Of a DNA stretch of 64,000 nucleotides, positions 3,480 to 51,652 are shown piece by piece (the stretch's first letter is position 1; every line of letters starts with the position of its first letter). Both the position numbers and the translations under genes were made by a program. Source of the DNA: Candidatus Moanibacter sp. (GTDB lineage Bacteria > Verrucomicrobiota > Verrucomicrobiia > Opitutales > UBA2987); NCBI GenBank assembly GCA_965215885.1, contig CBDCEW010000036.1, positions 19,410 through 83,409 on the forward strand, read 5' to 3'. The notes beneath the pieces were generated by a model. That model made no database searches. It saw only the letters and a list, made by a program, of their open reading frames with translations, and was not told the origin of the DNA.

Positions 3480-4842
3480 AATAAGGGACAGTCTTAATAT
3501 CCTATTTCTGTTAACATCGAAACGAAAATTATCAGCATAAATAATCATGCGAAAATCTAGATTGAAGATAATTGGCCGTAGTGCCGTGTATCATTGCATG
3601 ACGCGGACGGTGAATAAGGAAAGTCTGATCGATCGGGTGGCGAAGGAAGTCTTGCGCAAGGAGCTCTGGCAGATTGCCGACTTCAGCGGAGTGGAGGTGA
3701 TTACTTATTGCATTATGAGTAGTCATTTCCACGTCATGGTACGGATTCCCGACCGGGAGAGCGTGATGATATCCGACAAAGAGTTGATGCGACGATATCG
3801 GGTGCTGTATCCGATGCCAACAGCCTATCAGCAGGCCGATGCCAAGGTTTTGGAGATGAAGCTGTTAGAAGATGGAGAGGATGCAAAGGAACTGAGGAAA
3901 CAGCTCCTGGAGCGGATGCATGATGTCTCCCAGTTTATGAAAACCCTCAAGCAACGTTTTTCGATCTGGTATAATCGGTCACATAACCGTGTGGGGACGC
4001 TGTGGAGTGAACGGTTCAAGAGTACTTTGGTAGAGGGGACGGATGCGGCGATGCGGATAGCAGCAGCGTATATTGATCTAAATCCGGTTCGGGCCAAGAT
4101 CGTGAAAGACCCTAAGGAATACCGGTGGAGTGGGTATGGAGAAGCGATGGGCGGTTCTGCCGATGCGCGCCAGGGAATCTGTGAGAGCATTCGGCGTTTT
4201 GATGGTGAAGAACTGAGCTGGAGAAAGGCTGCGAGTGAGTATCGCAAGTTGCTCTATTGCAAGGGAGCGTCACCGTCACCAAGTGGAGGCGCCAAAATCG
4301 CCGATGATGAATGGAGAAGGGTGATAGAAGCGGGGGGTAAAGTGCCGGTAGCAGCGGCGTTGCGCTGCCGGGTGCGATATTTTACGGATGGAGCGGTGCT
4401 CGGCTCGGAGGAGTTCGTGCAGGGCATTTTTGAGGAATTCCGAAGCCAGTTTGGAGCAAAACGGAAGAGCGGCCCCAGGCGGATGAAAGGCAGCGACTGG
4501 GAGGGCTTAACCGTGCTGCGAGATCTCCGTCGGGAGGTATTCGGGTAGGAATTCGCGTGTGCCCGCGGATTCCTGGAGATTTCGCGGCGCGAAATGGAGA
4601 CGGATCGTAGCCAGAGATCGTCAACTTGAGATTCGACGTCGTACCTGCAGCTTGATTTGGGCAATTTTCCCGGCCTGGACGCGGTACGGAAGTGCGGGGA
4701 TATGCCACGCAGTGTGGTTTACCTGGATTGGTGTCTCGTTGTGGGGCTCGATACGAAACCAAATTCGGCAATCATATTAGCCATGGATGTATAGCGAGCG
4801 AGTTACGGAAAGGTAGATAGTATAGATTACCTGTCCCTTATT
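3480..4842 (+). mobile_element. RAYT-like element 1 bounded by 12-bp inverted repeats
   Basis: AATAAGGGACAG (3480-3491) and CTGTCCCTTATT (4831-4842) bracket the HUH transposase gene and about 280 bp of non-coding tail. Confidence 0.55.
3547..4548 (+). CDS. REP-associated tyrosine transposase-like (RAYT, Y1 HUH) protein
   Basis: YHCMTR, YCIMSSHFHVMV (HUH), GTLWSERFKS, YIDLNPVRA, YRWSGY. Paralog at 50449-51432. Confidence 0.88.
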   Translation: MRKSRLKIIGRSAVYHCMTRTVNKESLIDRVAKEVLRKELWQIADFSGVEVITYCIMSSHFHVMVRIPDRESVMISDKELMRRYRVLYPMPTAYQQADAKVLEMKLLEDGEDAKELRKQLLERMHDVSQFMKTLKQRFSIWYNRSHNRVGTLWSERFKSTLVEGTDAAMRIAAAYIDLNPVRAKIVKDPKEYRWSGYGEAMGGSADARQGICESIRRFDGEELSWRKAASEYRKLLYCKGASPSPSGGAKIADDEWRRVIEAGGKVPVAAALRCRVRYFTDGAVLGSEEFVQGIFEEFRSQFGAKRKSGPRRMKGSDWEGLTVLRDLRREVFG

Positions 4843-16465: not shown

Positions 16466-18072
16466 CATTTGCGTTAACCTAAGGAGAAGAAACAAGAGAG
16501 GAAATCAAGACGAGAACGCTTTTCATAGGTGCAGTGTTTGGGGATTTGTTTGAGCCATCGGGGGATGATCTGATCTTTGGGAAGGTGAGAGAGGATGAAG
16601 AAGTAGGGAGCAAAGAAGCCAAACCAGTAGGAGAATTTAAGGATACTCAGAGGAGAGGACAAACTGGTATTCGAATAGTGTCTAAGGGGACCATAGACGA
16701 AGTTGAGTAAGTGGGTAATGAGGATGAGACGGGCGTAGATAAGAAGCTCAACCTGGTAGGGAGTAGTCTCTTTGACCTGACCGAGATTAAGATGTTGCTT
16801 AAAGGCCTTAAAGAAAATTTCGATGCGCCAGCGAAGCCCGTAAAAGCTCAGAATCTGCTTAGGGCTAAAGTCTTTCTGATGGAGGTTGGTAATAAAGATT
16901 TGGAAACCGAGAAGGAAGCTGGTGCGGCTGGTATATCGAAGTCTATTGTCGCGGTTTTGTCTATGCTCGCGGCGGCGTTTATGGGCCACCTTCTGAGGGA
17001 GTTTGACGGCGATCAGACGAACCGGAAGCTTGGCTTTTTTACCCACCCGAACGGGCATATCGAGAAGCTTTTGGCCACGTAAAAGTTTGCGTAGATCGAG
17101 CTCTTCATCGCCTTCGTTGGCTAAAAGGCAAGTGCCGGTTTTCAAACGACTCACAAAGAAGCAGCCGCGCTGATCGAGTTGCTTAAAGACATCGAGGACA
17201 AAATAGCCTAAGTCGCGCAGGATCAAGTCGTTGGGTTGAGCGAGAGCGAGAATGTCTTTGGAAGCAGCCTGATCGTTTTTTCGGAAGCTACTGAGGCTGA
17301 AGTCAACGAAGGATTCATTGCGCAGATCGTAATAGGCCTGAATCTTCAGTTGAGCCTGTTTGGAGCCTGTCTGATTGGACGCTCCGGGGAAGAAGGGGGC
17401 CAGGGACCTTAGGCAAGCCAATCGAAGTGCTGTCGGCAATGAGAACCCGTTCAAAGCTCCTCATGCAATTTGGAACAGCTCTGCCCACAGGCCCATAAGC
17501 TTTAAGTTCTAAAAGCCTCAGGAGCACTAAGGTCATAAAAGCGGTGGCTTTTTTGGCGCACTTTTGGACCGCTTGTCTGGAAATGGTGCGGTTGGCTAAG
17601 AATCCAATAAGCTCGGCTTCTTTGCCAAGGGACAAGGCCCCCTTAGAAGCCATCGCCAGCAAAGCCAAAACAAAGTTCAGAGGGGAGATCTTGCGCGATT
17701 TCCTCTCTCTAAAACCACTCTGTTTAGCGAGGGCTGTGAGGTTCAACTTACGGAAGGTTTGACGGATACAATCAGCTTTTTTTATACTTTGCATCCGAAG
17801 GATAAATCCTATATATGAACGAATGTACAGTATAAAATGCTGCCAAAGTGAAAAAAAATGGGGTAGACGGTAAAAGTAGAGAAGATAACCCGGCCAAAAT
17901 GCACTCGCTCAACTGCGAATTTCCTCACCGCTGTGGTCGAAACGAAGCAAATAGAAAAGGGCGAACAAATGGAGTGGAACCTCGAGGATAGAGACACCCT
18001 CATACTCCGCCGCAAAATACCTCGCAAGTCTTTGAATCTGACTAAGTTGCGAAAATAAGGTTTACGCGTATG
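16466..18072 (-). mobile_element. IS4-family insertion sequence
   Basis: Imperfect IRs CATTTGCGTTAACCT (16466) and CATACGCGTAAACCT (reverse complement, ending 18072). No direct target duplication seen. Confidence 0.7.
16474..17794 (-). pseudogene. IS4-family transposase with a 1-nt frameshift near 17408
   Basis: IADSTSI in the upstream frame. LRDLGYF and the YREK signature YGLRWRIEIFFKAFK in the downstream frame. Confidence 0.85.
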
Positions 18073-18258
18073 CGCCGAGCGGGACTACCTTCTGAATCGG
18101 AGTGTGTAGCGGAAAGCGGAAGCTTTTCGATCCTCGCGAGTTTTCGAGAACGTGGACGAGCATCCCGCTGAGCGGGAAGAACGATATGTGATCTGCTAAA
18201 CCGGCAGTTCCCGCCCTCGAAATCTCGCCGGCAAACATCCAAGCACAGTGATCTTTCT

Positions 18259-18338
18259 AGGAGGGTGACTGAGGGGATTCGAACCCCCGACCCCTGGAAC
18301 CAGTCTGCCGTACGGCAGACCTCTGACGAGCTGAGCTA
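18259..18338 (-). repeat. tRNA-His-derived pseudo-copy with a palindrome in the anticodon arm
   Basis: 18259-18302 is identical to 18609-18652 (44 bp). It is followed by GTCTGCCGTACGGCAGAC and a degenerate D-arm. The 5' acceptor strand is absent. Confidence 0.85.
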
Positions 18339-18593
18339 AGAGTAATCCAGAAATTCCGCCACGATCTCTTTCTTAATCCGGGCCCCACAACCATGCTTGA
18401 AGAATCGTTCCCGTTTCATCGCCTGGCTTCGGGAGGGTGCCTGTTCCCAATAGATTAGCTGTGGATCTTTGAGCCGTCGTGTATAAGGGCAATCACCGGA
18501 ACGGTGTTGCAGCATACGATTCAAGAGATGGTTCGTCTGCCCGACATAAGATCGTTCGGTCTTCGGGCAATATAAAATGTAAACGTAGTACAA
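18336..18593 (-). CDS. Small stand-alone GIY-YIG nuclease (about 85 aa)
   Basis: YYVYIL...SYVGQT...RMLQH...YT...AMKRERFFK. Probable TTG start at 18593; the longer ORF in the track overlaps the tRNA. Confidence 0.85.
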   Translation of the reverse strand: MYYVYILYCPKTERSYVGQTNHLLNRMLQHRSGDCPYTRRLKDPQLIYWEQAPSRSQAMKRERFFKHGCGARIKKEIVAEFLDYS

Positions 18594-18613
18594 AAGCCCA
18601 TCCGCTGAAGGAG

Positions 18614-18688
18614 GGTGACTGAGGGGATTCGAACCCCCGACCCCTGGAACCACAATCCAGTGCTCTAACCAACTGAGCTACAGCCACC
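18614..18688 (-). tRNA. tRNA-His (GTG)
   Basis: GGTGGCTG/CAGTCACC acceptor with G-1:C73, D-arm TAGCTCAGTTGGTTAGAGC, anticodon arm CTGGA-TTGTGGT-TCCAG, T-loop GGTTCGAATCC. CCA not encoded. Confidence 0.96.
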
Positions 18689-18725
18689 ATAAAACCTGCC
18701 TCATAGCTTCGGCAGCTTTTATATT

Positions 18726-18755
18726 GTCTGTTACAAACGTTCGTTTGTAACAGAC
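18726..18755. repeat. Perfect palindrome with 14-bp arms upstream of tRNA-His
   Basis: GTCTGTTACAAACG-TT-CGTTTGTAACAGAC. Confidence 0.75.
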
Positions 18756-18938
18756 GAGAGGAATACGACAAATCCAGATTGAAGTAATGAACGCGTAGTT
18801 CCATTCGTGTCAACTTTCCTCTTCCTAATGCGGCGTAGACCATTTCCGAAAATCTACGCGGGTATCTGAATAGCCTGTTAGGCAGATGTCGGTGGTTGAA
18901 TCCTTCGCATTCCACGAACGCACCGAGATAGCTGACTT

Positions 18939-18976
18939 TTTCCGCGAATTCAGAAAGCGAACTCCGACAGATTCCT
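18939..18976. repeat. Dispersed 38-bp repeat, copy 1
   Basis: 33/38 identical to 21083-21120, ending TCCGACAGATTCCT. Confidence 0.7.
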
Positions 18977-20801
18977 AGTAGCGAATAGGTAGCCGGATCT
19001 TCTTTGCCACGGGGTCGCCGTCTTTCAGGGCTGGTTTAAACCGCCATGTCTGGACGGCATCTATGGTTGGTTGGTCAAAATCCGAGTGAAAGGATTCCGT
19101 TATCTCCACTTTTGTTACATATCCTTGTGCGTCGACAAGCAGTTCAAGCAATACGGTACCATGAATACCTTGATCAAGCAGATGGCTTGGATATGCCGGG
19201 CTGCGTACATGAATTGGCTGTGGAGGGCGATTCATAGCATCGAATTCGTCTTTCGAGCGCTTAGCCACCTTTTCAACGTATTCCCGGTGTGTTTTTACTC
19301 TGTTGACGGCAGAGAAATAGCGAGCCACCACCGTTTCGACATCATCTTCCGAGGCATCGATAGTAGATTGTAGTCTTTGAGCCGCTTTTACTCCATGGGT
19401 GGCGGCCCGGTTCAGCCATTCAAGGAATTTATCGAAGTCTCTAGGAAAAATTGCACCTTGAGAATACCAAAGAGCCAGGAGAAACTCTGCCTCCGGATAG
19501 TCTTGCTCGGCCGATAGCATCAACCATTTCGCCGCCTCCTTGTAGTCCTGCTCTGCTACCTTTCCTCGGCTGAGGATATTGGCCAAGGTGTATTGTGCGG
19601 CCGCGTTTCCCAATTCGGCCGCTTTGACGTAATAGTTAAACGCTTCGCTCTCATCTTCGGCTACGCCGAGGCCACGATCATACATCTCCGCTAAGCTTTG
19701 TATGGCGAGGGAGGAATTGCGTTCGGCAGCCTGGCTTAACCAGTAGCGCGCCTTCTCATAGTCCTTCACAACGCCTTCTCCTCCCAGGTAAAGATTTCCC
19801 AACAGCGCCTGAGAACGCAAGTCACCCTGTTTTGCCGAGAATTCGAGCCAATAGAGAGCTTGGTTGGCATCTTTTTCAACTTCTCGACCGATGTAATACC
19901 AATATCCAAGCTCACCCCGTGCGGGGAAGTCACCACCAATAGCTGCTTTACGGTAGAGTTTGAGGGCCAAAGCATCACTCTGTTCGGTTCCTGATCCTTG
20001 AGCGCACATGCCGGCCAGGTTTGTTGTCGCTTTGACGTGATTTTGATCGCTGGCCTTCTCATACCACTTTGCCGCCTCCTCCAGGTTCACTTTTCCGAAT
20101 CGTCCTTCTTCGAAGAGGATTGCCATCATATATTGTGCATCGGGGTGGCCGCTTGTCGCCGCCTTGCTAAACCACGACGCAGCCAATTTTGGATCGGCCT
20201 GAACTCCCTGTCCCTTTTCATAGAGCATACCCAAGTTATATTGGGCGGTGGTGTTTCCTGCTTTTGCCTGATTCTGGTTCCATTCGAAAGCCCGCTCGAA
20301 GTTCCTAGAATAGGCGTTGCCTTCTACAGCGATCCAGCCAAAGTGAGTCGTGCCCGAACCGCTTACGTTCTCGAGTGCCAGATTTTCGTATTTTCCGGCC
20401 TTCTCGGCATCCTTTGGCGCCTGTGTTCCATTCTCGTATACCCAGTTGAGGTAATGGGCGGCGGTGGCGCTACCTCTGTGGGCGGCGTCAGCCAGAATCC
20501 TCAACGCTTTCTCGTAATCAATGGTAGTGCCAAGGCCGAGCGTATGCATGAATCCCAGGAGACATTTCGCTTGCGGTTCTTTAGCCCTAACGAGTGGCTT
20601 CAGAATGATAAGCGCCTCTTCATATTTGTCACGATTGAGGGATTCTACGGCCTCTTTCATGAGATCGGCGGGATGCTCTTCCTTGATTACCTCACCTTCC
20701 CTGGCCTTAATCGGCTCTGGGCCGGCCTTTCCCATCGTCACAAGTGCCAGGAACACTGGAACCATAAAGAAACGATGACTATTTCTAGTGGTTGGTTTCA
20801 T
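18975..20801 (-). CDS. Sel1-repeat protein fused to a TonB C-terminal domain
   Basis: Signal peptide and repeated AQYNLGMLYEKGQGV-type Sel1 units. C-terminal PAYP...GTVLLELLVDAQGYV...WRFKPALKDG. Confidence 0.88.
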   Translation of the reverse strand: MKPTTRNSHRFFMVPVFLALVTMGKAGPEPIKAREGEVIKEEHPADLMKEAVESLNRDKYEEALIILKPLVRAKEPQAKCLLGFMHTLGLGTTIDYEKALRILADAAHRGSATAAHYLNWVYENGTQAPKDAEKAGKYENLALENVSGSGTTHFGWIAVEGNAYSRNFERAFEWNQNQAKAGNTTAQYNLGMLYEKGQGVQADPKLAASWFSKAATSGHPDAQYMMAILFEEGRFGKVNLEEAAKWYEKASDQNHVKATTNLAGMCAQGSGTEQSDALALKLYRKAAIGGDFPARGELGYWYYIGREVEKDANQALYWLEFSAKQGDLRSQALLGNLYLGGEGVVKDYEKARYWLSQAAERNSSLAIQSLAEMYDRGLGVAEDESEAFNYYVKAAELGNAAAQYTLANILSRGKVAEQDYKEAAKWLMLSAEQDYPEAEFLLALWYSQGAIFPRDFDKFLEWLNRAATHGVKAAQRLQSTIDASEDDVETVVARYFSAVNRVKTHREYVEKVAKRSKDEFDAMNRPPQPIHVRSPAYPSHLLDQGIHGTVLLELLVDAQGYVTKVEITESFHSDFDQPTIDAVQTWRFKPALKDGDPVAKKIRLPIRY

Positions 20802-34733: not shown

Positions 34734-35947
34734 GGGAACTTAGATCTTGGTGCCTTTTGTGAATGTTGTGCGAAAAATCCTCCCGCTTAAGAATGAACTG
34801 AAGAGCGGGCGCTTCTGGCTGAAGCATATCCACTGGGTAGCTCCTTTGGCAGCGACTTTCTTGATGCTTACGTGGACCTACGGGATCCACGCCCCAGGGA
34901 TTCGAAAGATTCTGCATGAAAATCACGGCCTTTTCGCTCTGGAAGCGGAGATTGAAAGCCTCGAATTGGCTTTTTCAGAACAGCAGGTCTTGGATTTTTC
35001 GATTCGATCGAAGGATGCGGAGATTTTTCTACTGCGAAATACGGGCGAAGCGGAGTCGATGTTAGACACCATTGAAGAGAAAGCAACTCTTCTAGGATGG
35101 AATTCCCGTTTCGGACAGGGTAAAAGGATTCCAGGAAGCAACTAGCTGATAAGCAAGAAGATAAAAAAAGAGCTAAACAAACCCGAGGGAATCAGTCATG
35201 TTAAGATGGGATGAAAGACAAAAAATCTTACCAACTGAATCCTTCGATAGATCGTTTAACTCTGCGTCTGGTCCTGCCCGAAGAGCAGGAGCGATTCAAT
35301 GATCTATTGAAACAACATCATTATTTACACAGTGCGGGCAGCGCAGGAGAGACCCTGCGCTATGTGGCGCAGATCGACGGGCAATGGATGGGCCTGCTCT
35401 TGTGGGGGGCCGCATCCTACCGGCTGAAGGATCGAGACGAATGGATCGGGAGGGACGGGGCGCAACGGCATGCACGATTGAAACTGGTAGTACAGAACCG
35501 GCGTTTTCTGATTTTGCCCGGGGTGGATCTTGCAAATTTGGCCTCCAAGACGTTGGGTATGTGCCTGAGAGTCTTAGCCGATCACTGGCAGGAGGCTTTT
35601 GGCTATCGTCCCTTAGTAGCGGAAACGTTCGTGGACCCACAGATTCACCGGGGCACTTGCTACGAAGCGAGCGGGTGGACGCCCTTGGGCTTGAGCGCGG
35701 GATATGGCCGCCAACGCGAAGATTTCTATCAACGCCATGAGCGTCCCAAGCAGATCTGGGTCAAACCCCTCAAGGCTAATGCCCTTGAGCTTTTGCGCGC
35801 TTCAGGGCCATTGCCCGCGGCACAGAGCCAGGCGCTCAATGAAACCGATAACTCCCATGCGGTCTGCCTCAAAGTGGAACAGATGAGCAGCCTGTGGGAA
35901 CGCTTCAATCAGATAGAAGACTTCCGTCGTAAAGCGGGCCTTAGATA

Positions 35948-42207: not shown

Positions 42208-44101
42208 CAGGGTAAAAGGATTCCAGGAAGCAACTAGCTGATAAGCAAGAAGATAAAAAAAGAGCTAAACAAACCCGAGGGAATCAGTCATGTTAAGATG
42301 GGATGAAAGACAAAAAATCTTACCAACTGAATCCTTCGATAGATCGTTTAACTCTGCGTCTGGTCCTGCCCGAAGAGCAGGAGCGATTCAATGATCTATT
42401 GAAACAACATCATTATTTACACAGTGCGGGCAGCGCAGGAGAGACCCTGCGCTATGTGGCGCAGATCGACGGGCAATGGATGGGCCTGCTCTTGTGGGGG
42501 GCCGCATCCTACCGGCTGAAGGATCGAGACGAATGGATCGGGAGGGACGGGGCGCAACGGCATGCACGATTGAAACTGGTAGTACAGAACCGGCGTTTTC
42601 TGATTTTGCCCGGGGTGGATCTTGCAAATTTGGCCTCCAAGACGTTGGGTATGTGCCTGAGAGTCTTAGCCGATCACTGGCAGGAGGCTTTTGGCTATCG
42701 TCCCTTAGTAGCGGAAACGTTCGTGGACCCACAGATTCACCGGGGCACTTGCTACGAAGCGAGCGGGTGGACGCCCTTGGGCTTGAGCGCGGGATATGGC
42801 CGCCAACGCGAAGATTTCTATCAACGCCATGAGCGTCCCAAGCAGATCTGGGTCAAACCCCTCAAGGCTAATGCCCTTGAGCTTTTGCGCGCTTCAGGGC
42901 CATTGCCCGCGGCACAGAGCCAGGCGCTCAATGAAACCGATAACTCCCATGCGGTCTGCCTCAAAGTGGAACAGATGAGCAGCCTGTGGGAACGCTTCAA
43001 TCAGATAGAAGACTTCCGTCGTAAAGCGGGCCTTAGATATCGGCTCGCCACGGTCCTGAGCATGATTGTGCTCGGCACGATGTGCGGCAAACAGACCCTC
43101 AAGGGCATCGTGCGCCTGGCCCATCATCTCAATCAAGCCCAATTGCGCGCCTTACGCTCCTGGAAAAACCCCAAAACAGGCCGCTATAAGGCCCCTTGCT
43201 ATGATGTCTTCTATCGGGTCTTGCAAAACGTAAAGGCCGAGCTCTTCGATAAAACCCTCACCGAATTCATCTGCTTACAAGACGGCTGTTTGCCCCGCGA
43301 TATTGCCGTCGACGGCAAGACCCTCAAAGGCACAAACACCGAAGAATCAAAGGCTCTGCACCTGGTGGCCGCAGTCGATCACCAAAGCGCTCAAACCTTA
43401 GCCCAAGTCGCTACCGCCGATAAATCCAACGCGATCACCGCCGCCCAGACTCTCTTGCGAAAGATGCCCATTTTGGACGGCTCCACCTTCACCTTCGACG
43501 CCATGCATAATCAAAAAGAAACTGCCCACATCGTCGTCGAAGAACTCAGTGCTGACTATGTTATTCAAATTAAAGACAATCAGCCCAACATGCATCAATA
43601 CGCTCAGAATCTCTTCAGCTCCACCCCCTTTTTCTCCACCAAACCGTGGACAATGACCATGGGCGACTCGAAATACGTCAAATAGCAACCCATTCTCTAA
43701 GCGCTCCCTCTGCCGGCCTGCCCCATGCCCGCCAGTTCGCCTGTGTGCAACGCACCTTCCATTATCCAAACAAAGCTGAACCTTCCTCTGAACGCTCTTA
43801 CTACGTAAGCAGTCTCGATCCCGCCGATTTGAGCCCTCAACAGTTCCTCTCGAAAATTCGCAACCATTGGTCGATCGAAAATAAAAATCATTACCCCAGG
43901 GATCGCTTCTTCGATGAAGATCGATGTATGATCCGTAATCATAACGCAGCCAGAATTCTTGCTGCATGCAGGCAACTGGTTCTCAGCCTCAAGTCTTCCA
44001 TGGGCGCTGAATCCACTCCCGCACTCTGTGATGATTTCGTCTTTAACTTACATAAGGCCATCAATATCATCACCTAATGCTCCGAGAATCAAAATACCGT
44101 G
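42208..44101 (+). mobile_element. ISAs1-family element (DUF4338-fused), intact copy 2
   Basis: IRs CAGGGTAAAAGGATTC / CACGGTATTTTGATTC (reverse complement). 10-bp target duplication AGAATGGTCT at 42198-42207 and 44102-44111. Confidence 0.95.
42303..44077 (+). CDS. DUF4338 (DruA-like) domain fused to an ISAs1 transposase, encoded across a -1 frame break at about 43624-43634
   Basis: N-terminal HHYL, RDEWIG, NRRFLILP, NLASK, ETFVDP, GTCY..SGW. ISAs1 motifs AVDGKTL, FDAMH, YVIQIKDNQP. HGRLEIR and RNHWSIEN lie in the second frame. Confidence 0.85.
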
Positions 44102-50448: not shown

Positions 50449-51432
50449 TTATCCGAAGACCTCGCTTCTTAGATCGCGCAAGACTGCCAGCTCTCCCCAT
50501 TCGCTTCCCCGCATCCGCTTCGGTCCTTCTTTCCTCCTTTTTCCCAGCCGCTCCCGATTCTCTTCATACCAGCTTTGGATGTATTCTCTTGTCCCCAGGA
50601 TCGCTCCGTCCGTGAAATACCTCACCCGGCAACGCAACAGCTCCTGAATACTTACTTTGCCACCGCTTTGCAGTACTTCTTTGACCTTCTGCGGATCTAT
50701 TCGCGCTCCCTCTCTGTCCTTGCCGTGGTAGCCGGTCCCAAAGACTACCGTCCGATACCCGCGTAAGGCCTCCGCCCAATCCTCCTCCCCCATGATCCAC
50801 TCCAGGCCCCATTGCGCCTGCTCTTCCCCGCTCAAAGCCTCGGCATAACCGCTCCAGCGATAGCTCTTCGGGTCCCGGCACAGGCCCGCCCGTACCGAAT
50901 TCAGATCGATGTAAGCCGCTACCATCTTGAGCGCTTCGGGACTATTCTCTACTAACAGACTTTTGAAGCGTTCCGACCAAAGGGTCCCATGGCTGCCGTA
51001 GGTGTGGTTAAACCAGATGCTGAAGCGCTGCTTGAGCTCTTTCATGAAGACCGATACCTCCCCCATCCGACTCTTCAGACGCTCTCGCAATGCTTCCGCC
51101 TCCCGTCCTCCCAAGGCCAGCATTTCCGCTAATACCTCCGGGGCCATTGCGCTCATGGGCAACCGCCCCCTGCCATAGAGAATGCGGTAACGTCTCATGA
51201 GCTCCATATCGCTAATCTCCTCGTCGTAAGGAACCCGAACCAGGATATGCAGATGGTTGCTAAGCAAGCAGTAAGTCAAAACTTCCACTCCACAGAAACC
51301 GGCCTGCCTCCACATCTGTTTGCGCAACACCTCCTTCCCCCTCGAATCAATGATCTTCTCGCCCAATACGGTCCGCGATATACAATGATAGACCGCTGTC
51401 TGCTCTTTCACCAATACCCTAGAAGTAGCCAT
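50449..51432 (-). CDS. RAYT-like Y1 HUH transposase, paralog 2
   Basis: YHCISR, YCLLSNHLHILV, GTLWSERFKS, YIDLNSVRA, CRVRYFTDG. Start at ATG 51432 by alignment to paralog 1. Confidence 0.88.
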   Translation of the reverse strand: MATSRVLVKEQTAVYHCISRTVLGEKIIDSRGKEVLRKQMWRQAGFCGVEVLTYCLLSNHLHILVRVPYDEEISDMELMRRYRILYGRGRLPMSAMAPEVLAEMLALGGREAEALRERLKSRMGEVSVFMKELKQRFSIWFNHTYGSHGTLWSERFKSLLVENSPEALKMVAAYIDLNSVRAGLCRDPKSYRWSGYAEALSGEEQAQWGLEWIMGEEDWAEALRGYRTVVFGTGYHGKDREGARIDPQKVKEVLQSGGKVSIQELLRCRVRYFTDGAILGTREYIQSWYEENRERLGKRRKEGPKRMRGSEWGELAVLRDLRSEVFG

Positions 51433-51652
51433 ATGTTCACTATCGCACTCCTTGTCGATCCTGTCAAATACTTTATACAATAAACAACCTGTCTGATTAT
51501 CCCTGTTTCTTGGAGGTATGGAGGCGGCTGTGCCAGGGTAGGTCGGGATTGGGAAATAATATCGAGGGAATGGGCTCTCTATAAAGAACTCGGGATAGGG
51601 GCATTCCAAATTTGCTTGCACATACCCTGCATTCAGTCAAAACTGGTTAGTC

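Follow-up and report, generated by a model that had tools for sequence, protein, structure and literature searches.

A tRNA-His-linked unit of a small GIY-YIG nuclease gene and a hairpin-bearing tRNA copy is a likely selfish DNA element

Downstream of the tRNA-His gene of the uncultured bacterium Candidatus Moanibacter sp. lies a 350-bp unit made up of a small GIY-YIG nuclease gene and a copy of the tRNA in which a perfect palindrome replaces part of the anticodon arm. Judged from sequence, this unit is a tRNA-His-targeted cassette of nuclease and hairpin copy, and it is probably an integrase-free selfish element that spreads by nuclease-triggered recombination. The layout recurs in many uncultured bacteria, and thus the unit is likely to be a small selfish DNA element. 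Its architecture, its recurrence with a fixed boundary, its presence or absence in congeners, its tandem arrays and the purifying selection on its protein were observed directly. No description of the tRNA-His cassette layout was found in the literature outside subscription journals.

Organization of the locus

The window, as the whole analyzed stretch of 64,000 nucleotides is called here, carries the following features (coordinates are positions in the window).

18613..18688, minus strand: intact tRNA-His(GTG) with no encoded CCA (ARAGORN, at 18613-18687; Rfam, 67.8 bits)
18609..18652, minus strand: upstream copy of a 44-bp direct repeat (T35 to C73 of the tRNA plus 5 nt of flank)
18336..18593, minus strand: 85-aa GIY-YIG nuclease gene, from TTG at 18593 to TAG at 18336 (start inferred)
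18321..18338, minus strand: D-arm-like remnant, tRNA positions 8-24 with 3 substitutions
18303..18320, no strand: perfect 18-nt palindrome in place of tRNA positions 25-34
18259..18302, minus strand: downstream copy of the 44-bp direct repeat (3' half of the tRNA copy), with host flank beyond it
18259..18608, minus strand: whole 350-bp unit, the exact stretch skipped by joined contigs in runs X6 and X4
18726..18755, no strand: second palindrome, 30 nt with 14-bp arms, single-copy, in the tRNA-His leader

An earlier note on this DNA had described an intact tRNA-His, a GIY-YIG gene of ~85 aa, a tRNA-like copy and a stop codon shared with a tRNA motif, and every one of these elements is present. 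The tRNA-His, which is the cassette's putative target and anchor, is separated from the nuclease ORF by 19 nt. The nuclease stop codon TAG is the TAG of TAGCTCAG and is supplied by the D-arm remnant (18321-18338), 15 of whose 18 bases are those of the tRNA. The 44-nt repeats are 100% identical and spaced 350 nt apart, exactly as had been claimed. The palindrome at 18726-18755 shares its five terminal bases with the 18-nt hairpin, which makes for a possible link to the cassette.

The earlier note had made its reading depend on support for the duplication in reads, and contigs from two studies hold the unit. In runs X1 and X3 the stretch 18273-18638 is spanned by a single 366-nt contig (0 and 1 differences), whose depth is close to that of the flanks. 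Thus, with the reservation that X1 or X3 could be the assembly's own source, the unit is no assembly artefact and is unamplified in those runs. The assembly has one copy, and tandem expansion was not seen at the window locus. Among the contigs of 8 runs no circle junction of the unit was listed, a result that leaves room for circles in the population. The absence of an integrase was also borne out: none of the 48 translated ORFs of the window scanned with Pfam matched an integrase or recombinase family (4 of 49 long frames were left out of the scan). A scan of 18000-19000 for promoters and terminators found none. Neither the nuclease gene nor the tRNA copy is covered by an RNA contig, as could happen with or without expression.

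Transposase genes also lie in the window. An IS4-like DDE transposase in two frames (16474-17794, with flank to ~18075) has about 35 genome copies and is a separate element. IS200/RAYT-like Y1 transposase (Y1_Tnp) genes are found at 3541-4545 and 50452-51636, and a DruA-like domain adjoins or is fused to a DDE transposase domain at 35205-35945 and 42297-43682.

The nuclease

The 85-aa ORF matches the Pfam GIY-YIG domain (PF01541) with E=1.6e-12 and 48 bits against a cut-off of 22.6. The catalytic columns Tyr, Tyr, Gly, Arg, His and Glu are all present, and with the domain and a three-strand fold they place the protein in the GIY-YIG superfamily. NCBIfam has no model above cut-off for the 85-aa protein, and a viral contig search with this single protein gave no match. 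Slx1/HIGLE and UPF0213 (YhbQ-like) proteins are its best likenesses in PDB sequence and fold. A profile of 19 relatives found its best PDB sequence matches in UPF0213 (1zg2, 1ywl) and Slx1, and the AlphaFold model (pLDDT 95) matches the folds of HIGLE (Z 7.1), Slx1 (6.6) and I-TevI (6.3), with 7wme and 6seh among the best; these fold scores are middling, covering 74-81 residues at an rmsd of 3.2-3.9. Slx1 differs in being a eukaryotic branched-DNA repair nuclease with a partner (PDB entry titles).

According to the model, the protein is a single GIY-YIG domain (residues 1-84) with no separate DNA-binding part. SegB-type homing endonucleases consist of a catalytic domain and one or more separate DNA-binding domains for a long dsDNA site, and no such separate domain is found in the one-domain model.

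Within the clade linked to tRNA-His, dN/dS is 0.05-0.13 in five unsaturated close pairs; by this sequence measure the protein is under purifying selection. Nuclease genes are broken in six loci (L186, L199, L200, L215, L216 and L377). Small single-domain GIY-YIG proteins form 2190 representative clusters at E<=0.001. Among 47 homologues with N-terminal extensions of at least 15 aa, 13 contain T-loop-like translations (P0005, P0007, P0115, P0118 and others), and their sequences suggest that these N-termini are probably gene callers reading through the upstream tRNA. P0029 and P0141 carry the small GIY-YIG domain within longer proteins that, by eye, resemble type I restriction specificity subunits.

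A clade linked to tRNA-His

A narrower alignment found 37 metagenome and 5 genome loci, to which the gene of the window itself and two loci of the phylum search were added for the tree. Twenty-two loci form one tRNA-His branch (support 0.983; SH-aLRT 99 in a second tree), and on this phylogenetic evidence the nuclease is a member of a tRNA-His-specific clade. A hairpin-substituted tRNA-His copy is found in all 22 tree-defined loci and an intact tRNA-His in 19; the remaining three have just 112-209 nt upstream. When six truncated genes picked by eye are added, the counts are 26 of 28 for the hairpin copy and 24 of 28 for the intact tRNA. The counts exclude L192-L198 and L202-L211, which belong to other clades or are too short; they include a near-identical pair, L184 and L187, and two loci of a single genome, L212 and L214.

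The right boundary of the hairpin is fixed, in that tRNA identity always resumes at T35, a base of the anticodon; the left boundary, at position 25 or 27, is imposed by the search pattern. In an alignment of 23 copies, all 138 cells of the 6-bp stem are paired, none of them as G-U. The stem covaries, with 19 double-sided changes over three pairs and three invariant pairs. The 16-nt core of the window is shared by L184, L187 and L376. The 3' half of each copy matches its own host's tRNA, and the copy of L376 is full-length. A unit size of ~340-390 bp recurs in many loci.

Copies also occur upstream of the gene. These left-hand copies comprise the promoter, tRNA positions 1-25/27, the hairpin and about ten more bases, ending near position 46, so that most have no T-arm and no acceptor 3' strand. 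L079, L212 and L190 have two to four such copies in a row. At L181 and L200 a broken copy comes first, followed by the gene, a second promoter and the intact tRNA, and native tRNA copies appear broken at L106, L181 and L200. Among right-hand copies the T-arm is broken in 8 of 18, often by another hairpin.

Linkage of small GIY-YIG genes to tRNA genes

The earlier note had proposed a search for GIY-YIG genes next to tRNAs, and such genes are common. Loci were taken from 30 of 42 matches in 61 relatives, from the Moanibacter genome itself and from 30 plus 80 stretches of a ranked phylum search, whose lowest-ranked and 27 unlisted matches were left out; 112 of 138 loci had at least 600 nt upstream. 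A tRNA or tmRNA lies within 600 nt upstream on the same strand in 77 of these 112 loci, some of them related and so not independent. The opposite strand has none, and the background is 0.2%. The fraction of 77 in 112 is biased upward because the profile was built largely from tRNA-linked proteins. Nine more of the 112 have a T-loop motif alone upstream.

Two layouts recur. The first is tRNA, hairpin, gene, hairpin; the second, as in the window, is tRNA, gene and hairpin-bearing tRNA copy, and it is also found at Arg, Asn, Met, Cys, Tyr and Pro genes. Other nuclease clades have different hairpins at tRNA genes for Asn, Met, Pro, Arg, Cys and Tyr. Tandem arrays occur in L016, L045 and L059; tandem expansion, which the earlier note had also wished to see sought, is thus found at other loci and not at that of the window. 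The UPF0213-like genes L020 and L021 have no tRNA link.

The Moanibacter genome has two further small GIY-YIG genes. One (L031, C95:78400-78820) follows a fragment resembling the 3' end of tmRNA and a hairpin, and the stretch upstream of L005 in genome G032 is near-identical to that of L031. The other, at C95:84210, has no tRNA. In L192, L193 and L195, related GIY-YIG genes lie upstream of tRNA-Gln with other hairpins.

Filled and empty sites

In the Moanibacter genome and its relatives, a GIY-YIG gene stands behind tRNA-His in 2 of 29 loci, that of the window and L160, which has the other layout (tRNA, hairpin, gene, hairpin). None of six same-family tRNA-His loci carries the cassette, and the His-clade profile matches 9 of 401 genomes of the phylum at E<=1e-16, seven of them strongly. 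A second, divergent tRNA-His gene of the Moanibacter genome (C104:326042-326115) is without a cassette.

The empty tRNA-His loci that the earlier note had asked about were found in congeners. In genus g67, for which the locus with its tRNA was obtained from 12 of 13 genomes, 2 of the 12 syntenic loci have the gene and the hairpin copy and 10 are plain; the hairpin copy is found solely where the nuclease gene is present. The promoter ahead of the broken copy in G199 resembles that of the plain congeners, and a second promoter precedes the intact tRNA. In part of this genus the tRNA-His and its promoter are inverted between the same two flanking genes (L354, L356, L360 and L361 versus L351, L352, L355, L358, L362, L363 and L368).

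Some contigs hint at an empty allele in the source population as well. In X6 (an RNA library; contig depth 2.6, no differences) and X4 (contig depth 5.6), a contig passes straight from 18258 to 18609, skipping exactly 350 nt. The 44-bp repeat is longer than the 31-letter word, and the joins may be collapsed-repeat or chimeric; the joined X4 contig has 3 differences and, from 18694 on, another sequence upstream, and X10, which shares its study with X6, extends 8 nt into the cassette. For these reasons the empty allele is suggestive only. A cassette contig of X4 departs from the reference at 18580, inside the nuclease gene, with 21 unlike letters, which is possibly an insertion in that strain.

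The hairpin as a genome-wide repeat

The palindrome search proposed by the earlier note showed a genome-wide repeat, which adds to the first reading that the palindrome is not private to the tRNA copy. The 12-nt core has 115 copies in the Moanibacter genome, where 80 shuffled palindromes average 0.44 copies. The 14-nt core has 107 copies, of which 15 lie inside long ORFs, against ORF coverage of 72% of the genome; the 16-nt core has 81 copies there, one in G006 and none in 39 other relatives. Only 3 of the 115 copies lie within 500 nt of a tRNA, and the window's only core copy is that at 18306, although the window has two Y1_Tnp genes. REP/REPIN elements with RAYT transposases are short, mostly intergenic, high-copy palindromes. 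The hairpin is REP-like in being a high-copy and mostly intergenic palindrome; it differs in that its partner gene is a GIY-YIG nuclease and in that it replaces target bases.

This replacement is visible outside tRNA genes. A hairpin-free paralog was available for 11 of 86 distinct flank pairs, and in 10 of these 11 the hairpin replaces a tract of 6-14 nt bounded as purine|C...G|pyrimidine (chance ~1.4% each). The tRNA tract replaced by the hairpin has the same bounds; in the 23 tRNA-His cases the purine|C rule is partly imposed by the search pattern and by tRNA conservation. Several T-arm patches show, by eye, no obvious purine|C rule.

The idea that each host's copy hairpin is its genome-wide repeat was rejected, as the copy hairpin has 1-4 genome copies in six other hosts (G029, G024, G073, G127, G206 and G207). 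Thus, spread of the hairpin is no general consequence of the nuclease. The hairpin also sits in other repeat families of the Moanibacter genome. That genome is rich in palindromes, with nine hairpin words at 99-124 copies, some of them nested; one hairpin word, with 80 copies there, matches the type in a tRNA-Asn copy of G024.

Comparison with known systems

Two characterized systems resemble the cassette. SsnA of Neisseria meningitidis is a 94-aa GIY-YIG protein with hairpin-dependent cleavage of ssDNA, and small single-domain GIY-YIG proteins apart from the Ssn family are called uncharacterized in that report (Chenal et al. 2025, PMC11893778). Ssn proteins (cd10448) are, in the account given there, single-domain GIY-YIG proteins of ~90 aa adjoining a clade-specific NTS/SRM hairpin, which is amplified genome-wide in some hosts and for which the authors propose a mobile origin (PMC11893778). 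The 85-aa protein is of Ssn size (single domain, <150 aa) and is 33% identical to an NTS-flanked candidate. The SRM motif occurs neither in the window nor in any of 28 His-clade loci; L218 and L274, which a search with the motif detected, have it on either side. In the best tree a separate branch takes up two NTS-flanked candidates, and joining them to the His clade is not rejected (AU p=0.156). The window hairpin further differs in being embedded in a tRNA copy; tRNA is unmentioned in the Ssn main text (PMC11893778).

SegB of phages T4 and T6 is described as a free-standing GIY-YIG homing endonuclease of tRNA clusters, with its gene beside tRNA genes, recognition of a tRNA motif, homing, and the ability to produce tandem repeats of a tRNA and nuclease unit by microhomology (PMC2330249, PMC13096335). 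It is a phage dsDNA endonuclease with a 27-bp site, in contrast to the 85-aa chromosomal Slx1/UPF0213-like domain found here, and no hairpin-substituted tRNA copy was found described for SegB in the available parts of these two papers (PMC2330249, PMC13096335). Presence and absence at orthologous loci, as in genus g67, is a trait of homing endonucleases of this type. The cassette would work like the Ssn nucleases and SegB, probably as a member of neither family.

Mechanism and alternative explanations

The earlier note had offered two interpretations, a minimal selfish element using the nuclease and a REP-like hairpin, or a nuclease with a tRNA-like RNA partner. The first is supported by the tRNA-linked homologues, tandem arrays, empty sites and genome-wide hairpin, all of them sequence evidence; the second fares badly. 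Cleavage and mobility we infer. Much as Ssn does with NTS, the nuclease would bind the hairpin of its clade in single-stranded DNA and nick nearby; the anticodon arm of tRNA-His genes may be nicked by it as well. The cut DNA could be the donor hairpin or the recipient anticodon arm, between which sequence cannot distinguish. Host recombination into a recipient tRNA-His would then be steered by homology on either side of the hairpin (the D-arm to its left, positions from 35 on to its right) and by the tRNA 3' end that precedes the gene. The outcome would be an intact tRNA-His accompanied by at least one dead copy with a hairpin. In the window the dead copy is downstream; at other loci it is upstream, where it has the native promoter, and a replacement tRNA is present. 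The extra T-arm hairpins and the 107 copies in the Moanibacter genome would result from recurrent cutting and patching. Homology to the tRNA could by itself account for isotype specificity, with no cut in the target. This genome also has many other abundant palindromes, and IS200/RAYT-like transposase genes that could move hairpins instead.

A bolder form of the mechanism, which we hold only tentatively, makes the nuclease a cut-and-patch mobilizer. Paired purine^C nicks 6-14 nt apart on opposite strands would, with host repair, write the 18-nt hairpin over the tract between them; the nuclease would in this way break tRNA-His copies, drag its own gene into tRNA loci and have seeded more than 100 hairpins.

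The alternative that survives best, unlikely as it seems, makes the nuclease a passenger. Homologous recombination would have spread the unit as an ordinary duplication of the tRNA, and the hairpin would be a REP moved by a transposase, of RAYT/IS200 type or another, that patches unselected tRNA copies. The two Y1_Tnp genes of the window, the many abundant palindrome families of the genome and the presence of the hairpin in other repeat families all fit such a history. However, hairpin type tracks nuclease clade across genomes, the hairpin is at low copy in hosts without expansion and missing from the 10 nuclease-free syntenic loci, and the protein is under purifying selection.

A little less probable is a role in host defense or repair, in which the nuclease uses the tRNA promoter and cuts incoming ssDNA bearing the hairpin or a tRNA att site, much as SsnA restricts the transformation of Neisseria. 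The reported activity of SsnA is a precedent (PMC11893778), the genes lie downstream of tRNAs on the same strand, and purifying selection would be expected to fit. Conversely, the distribution is patchy, broken copies are frequent, tandem arrays exist, and the native tRNA copies of L106, L181 and L200 are seemingly broken; such a role is also compatible with a selfish origin.

The RNA partner of the earlier note, a copy transcribed as a tRNA-like RNA that guides, decoys or neutralizes the nuclease in the manner of a type III toxin-antitoxin system, is improbable. It would suit the co-orientation of the copy with the tRNA and gene, the tandem copies upstream of the gene in L079, L190 and L212, and the strictly conserved stem. 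However, the hairpin copy has no tRNA-like fold (z=-0.44), and Rfam finds in it no tRNA, only a weak tmRNA match (13.8 bits versus 47). The broken T-arms of 8 of 18 right-hand copies and the left-hand copies, which mostly lack the T-arm, take in promoter and leader DNA and end near position 46, tell against it too, as does the absence of G-U pairs in 138 stem cells, which fits a DNA palindrome. SsnA shows no RNA binding (PMC11893778).

Least probable is a relic of an integrase-driven island shrunk to one gene, with the 44-bp repeat as att site: a duplication from the anticodon loop to the tRNA 3' end is the usual att footprint (PMC9897764) and tRNA-integrating islands and prophages with tyrosine integrases duplicate the tRNA 3' half in this way, here 44 bp from T35, but the ~350-bp unit has no integrase among the scanned ORFs of the window, many loci have units of ~340-390 bp, and att recombination does not produce D-arm copies, a full-length copy such as that of L376, or upstream copies; the hairpin copy is a further difference from such islands.

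Implications

One clade, one tRNA gene and one covarying, fixed-boundary hairpin make a ready enzyme-substrate pair for an oligonucleotide assay. If the preferred reading, that of an integrase-free selfish cassette, is right, it defines an integrase-free parasite of tRNA genes, would account for a class of pseudo-tRNAs in annotations, hints at the source of some REP-like palindromes and adds compact sequence-specific nucleases that are possibly useful as tools. If the cut-and-patch form is true, the cassette would be a mobile element that has neither a transposase nor an integrase nor a reverse transcriptase, and REP-like repeats would have a second way to arise.
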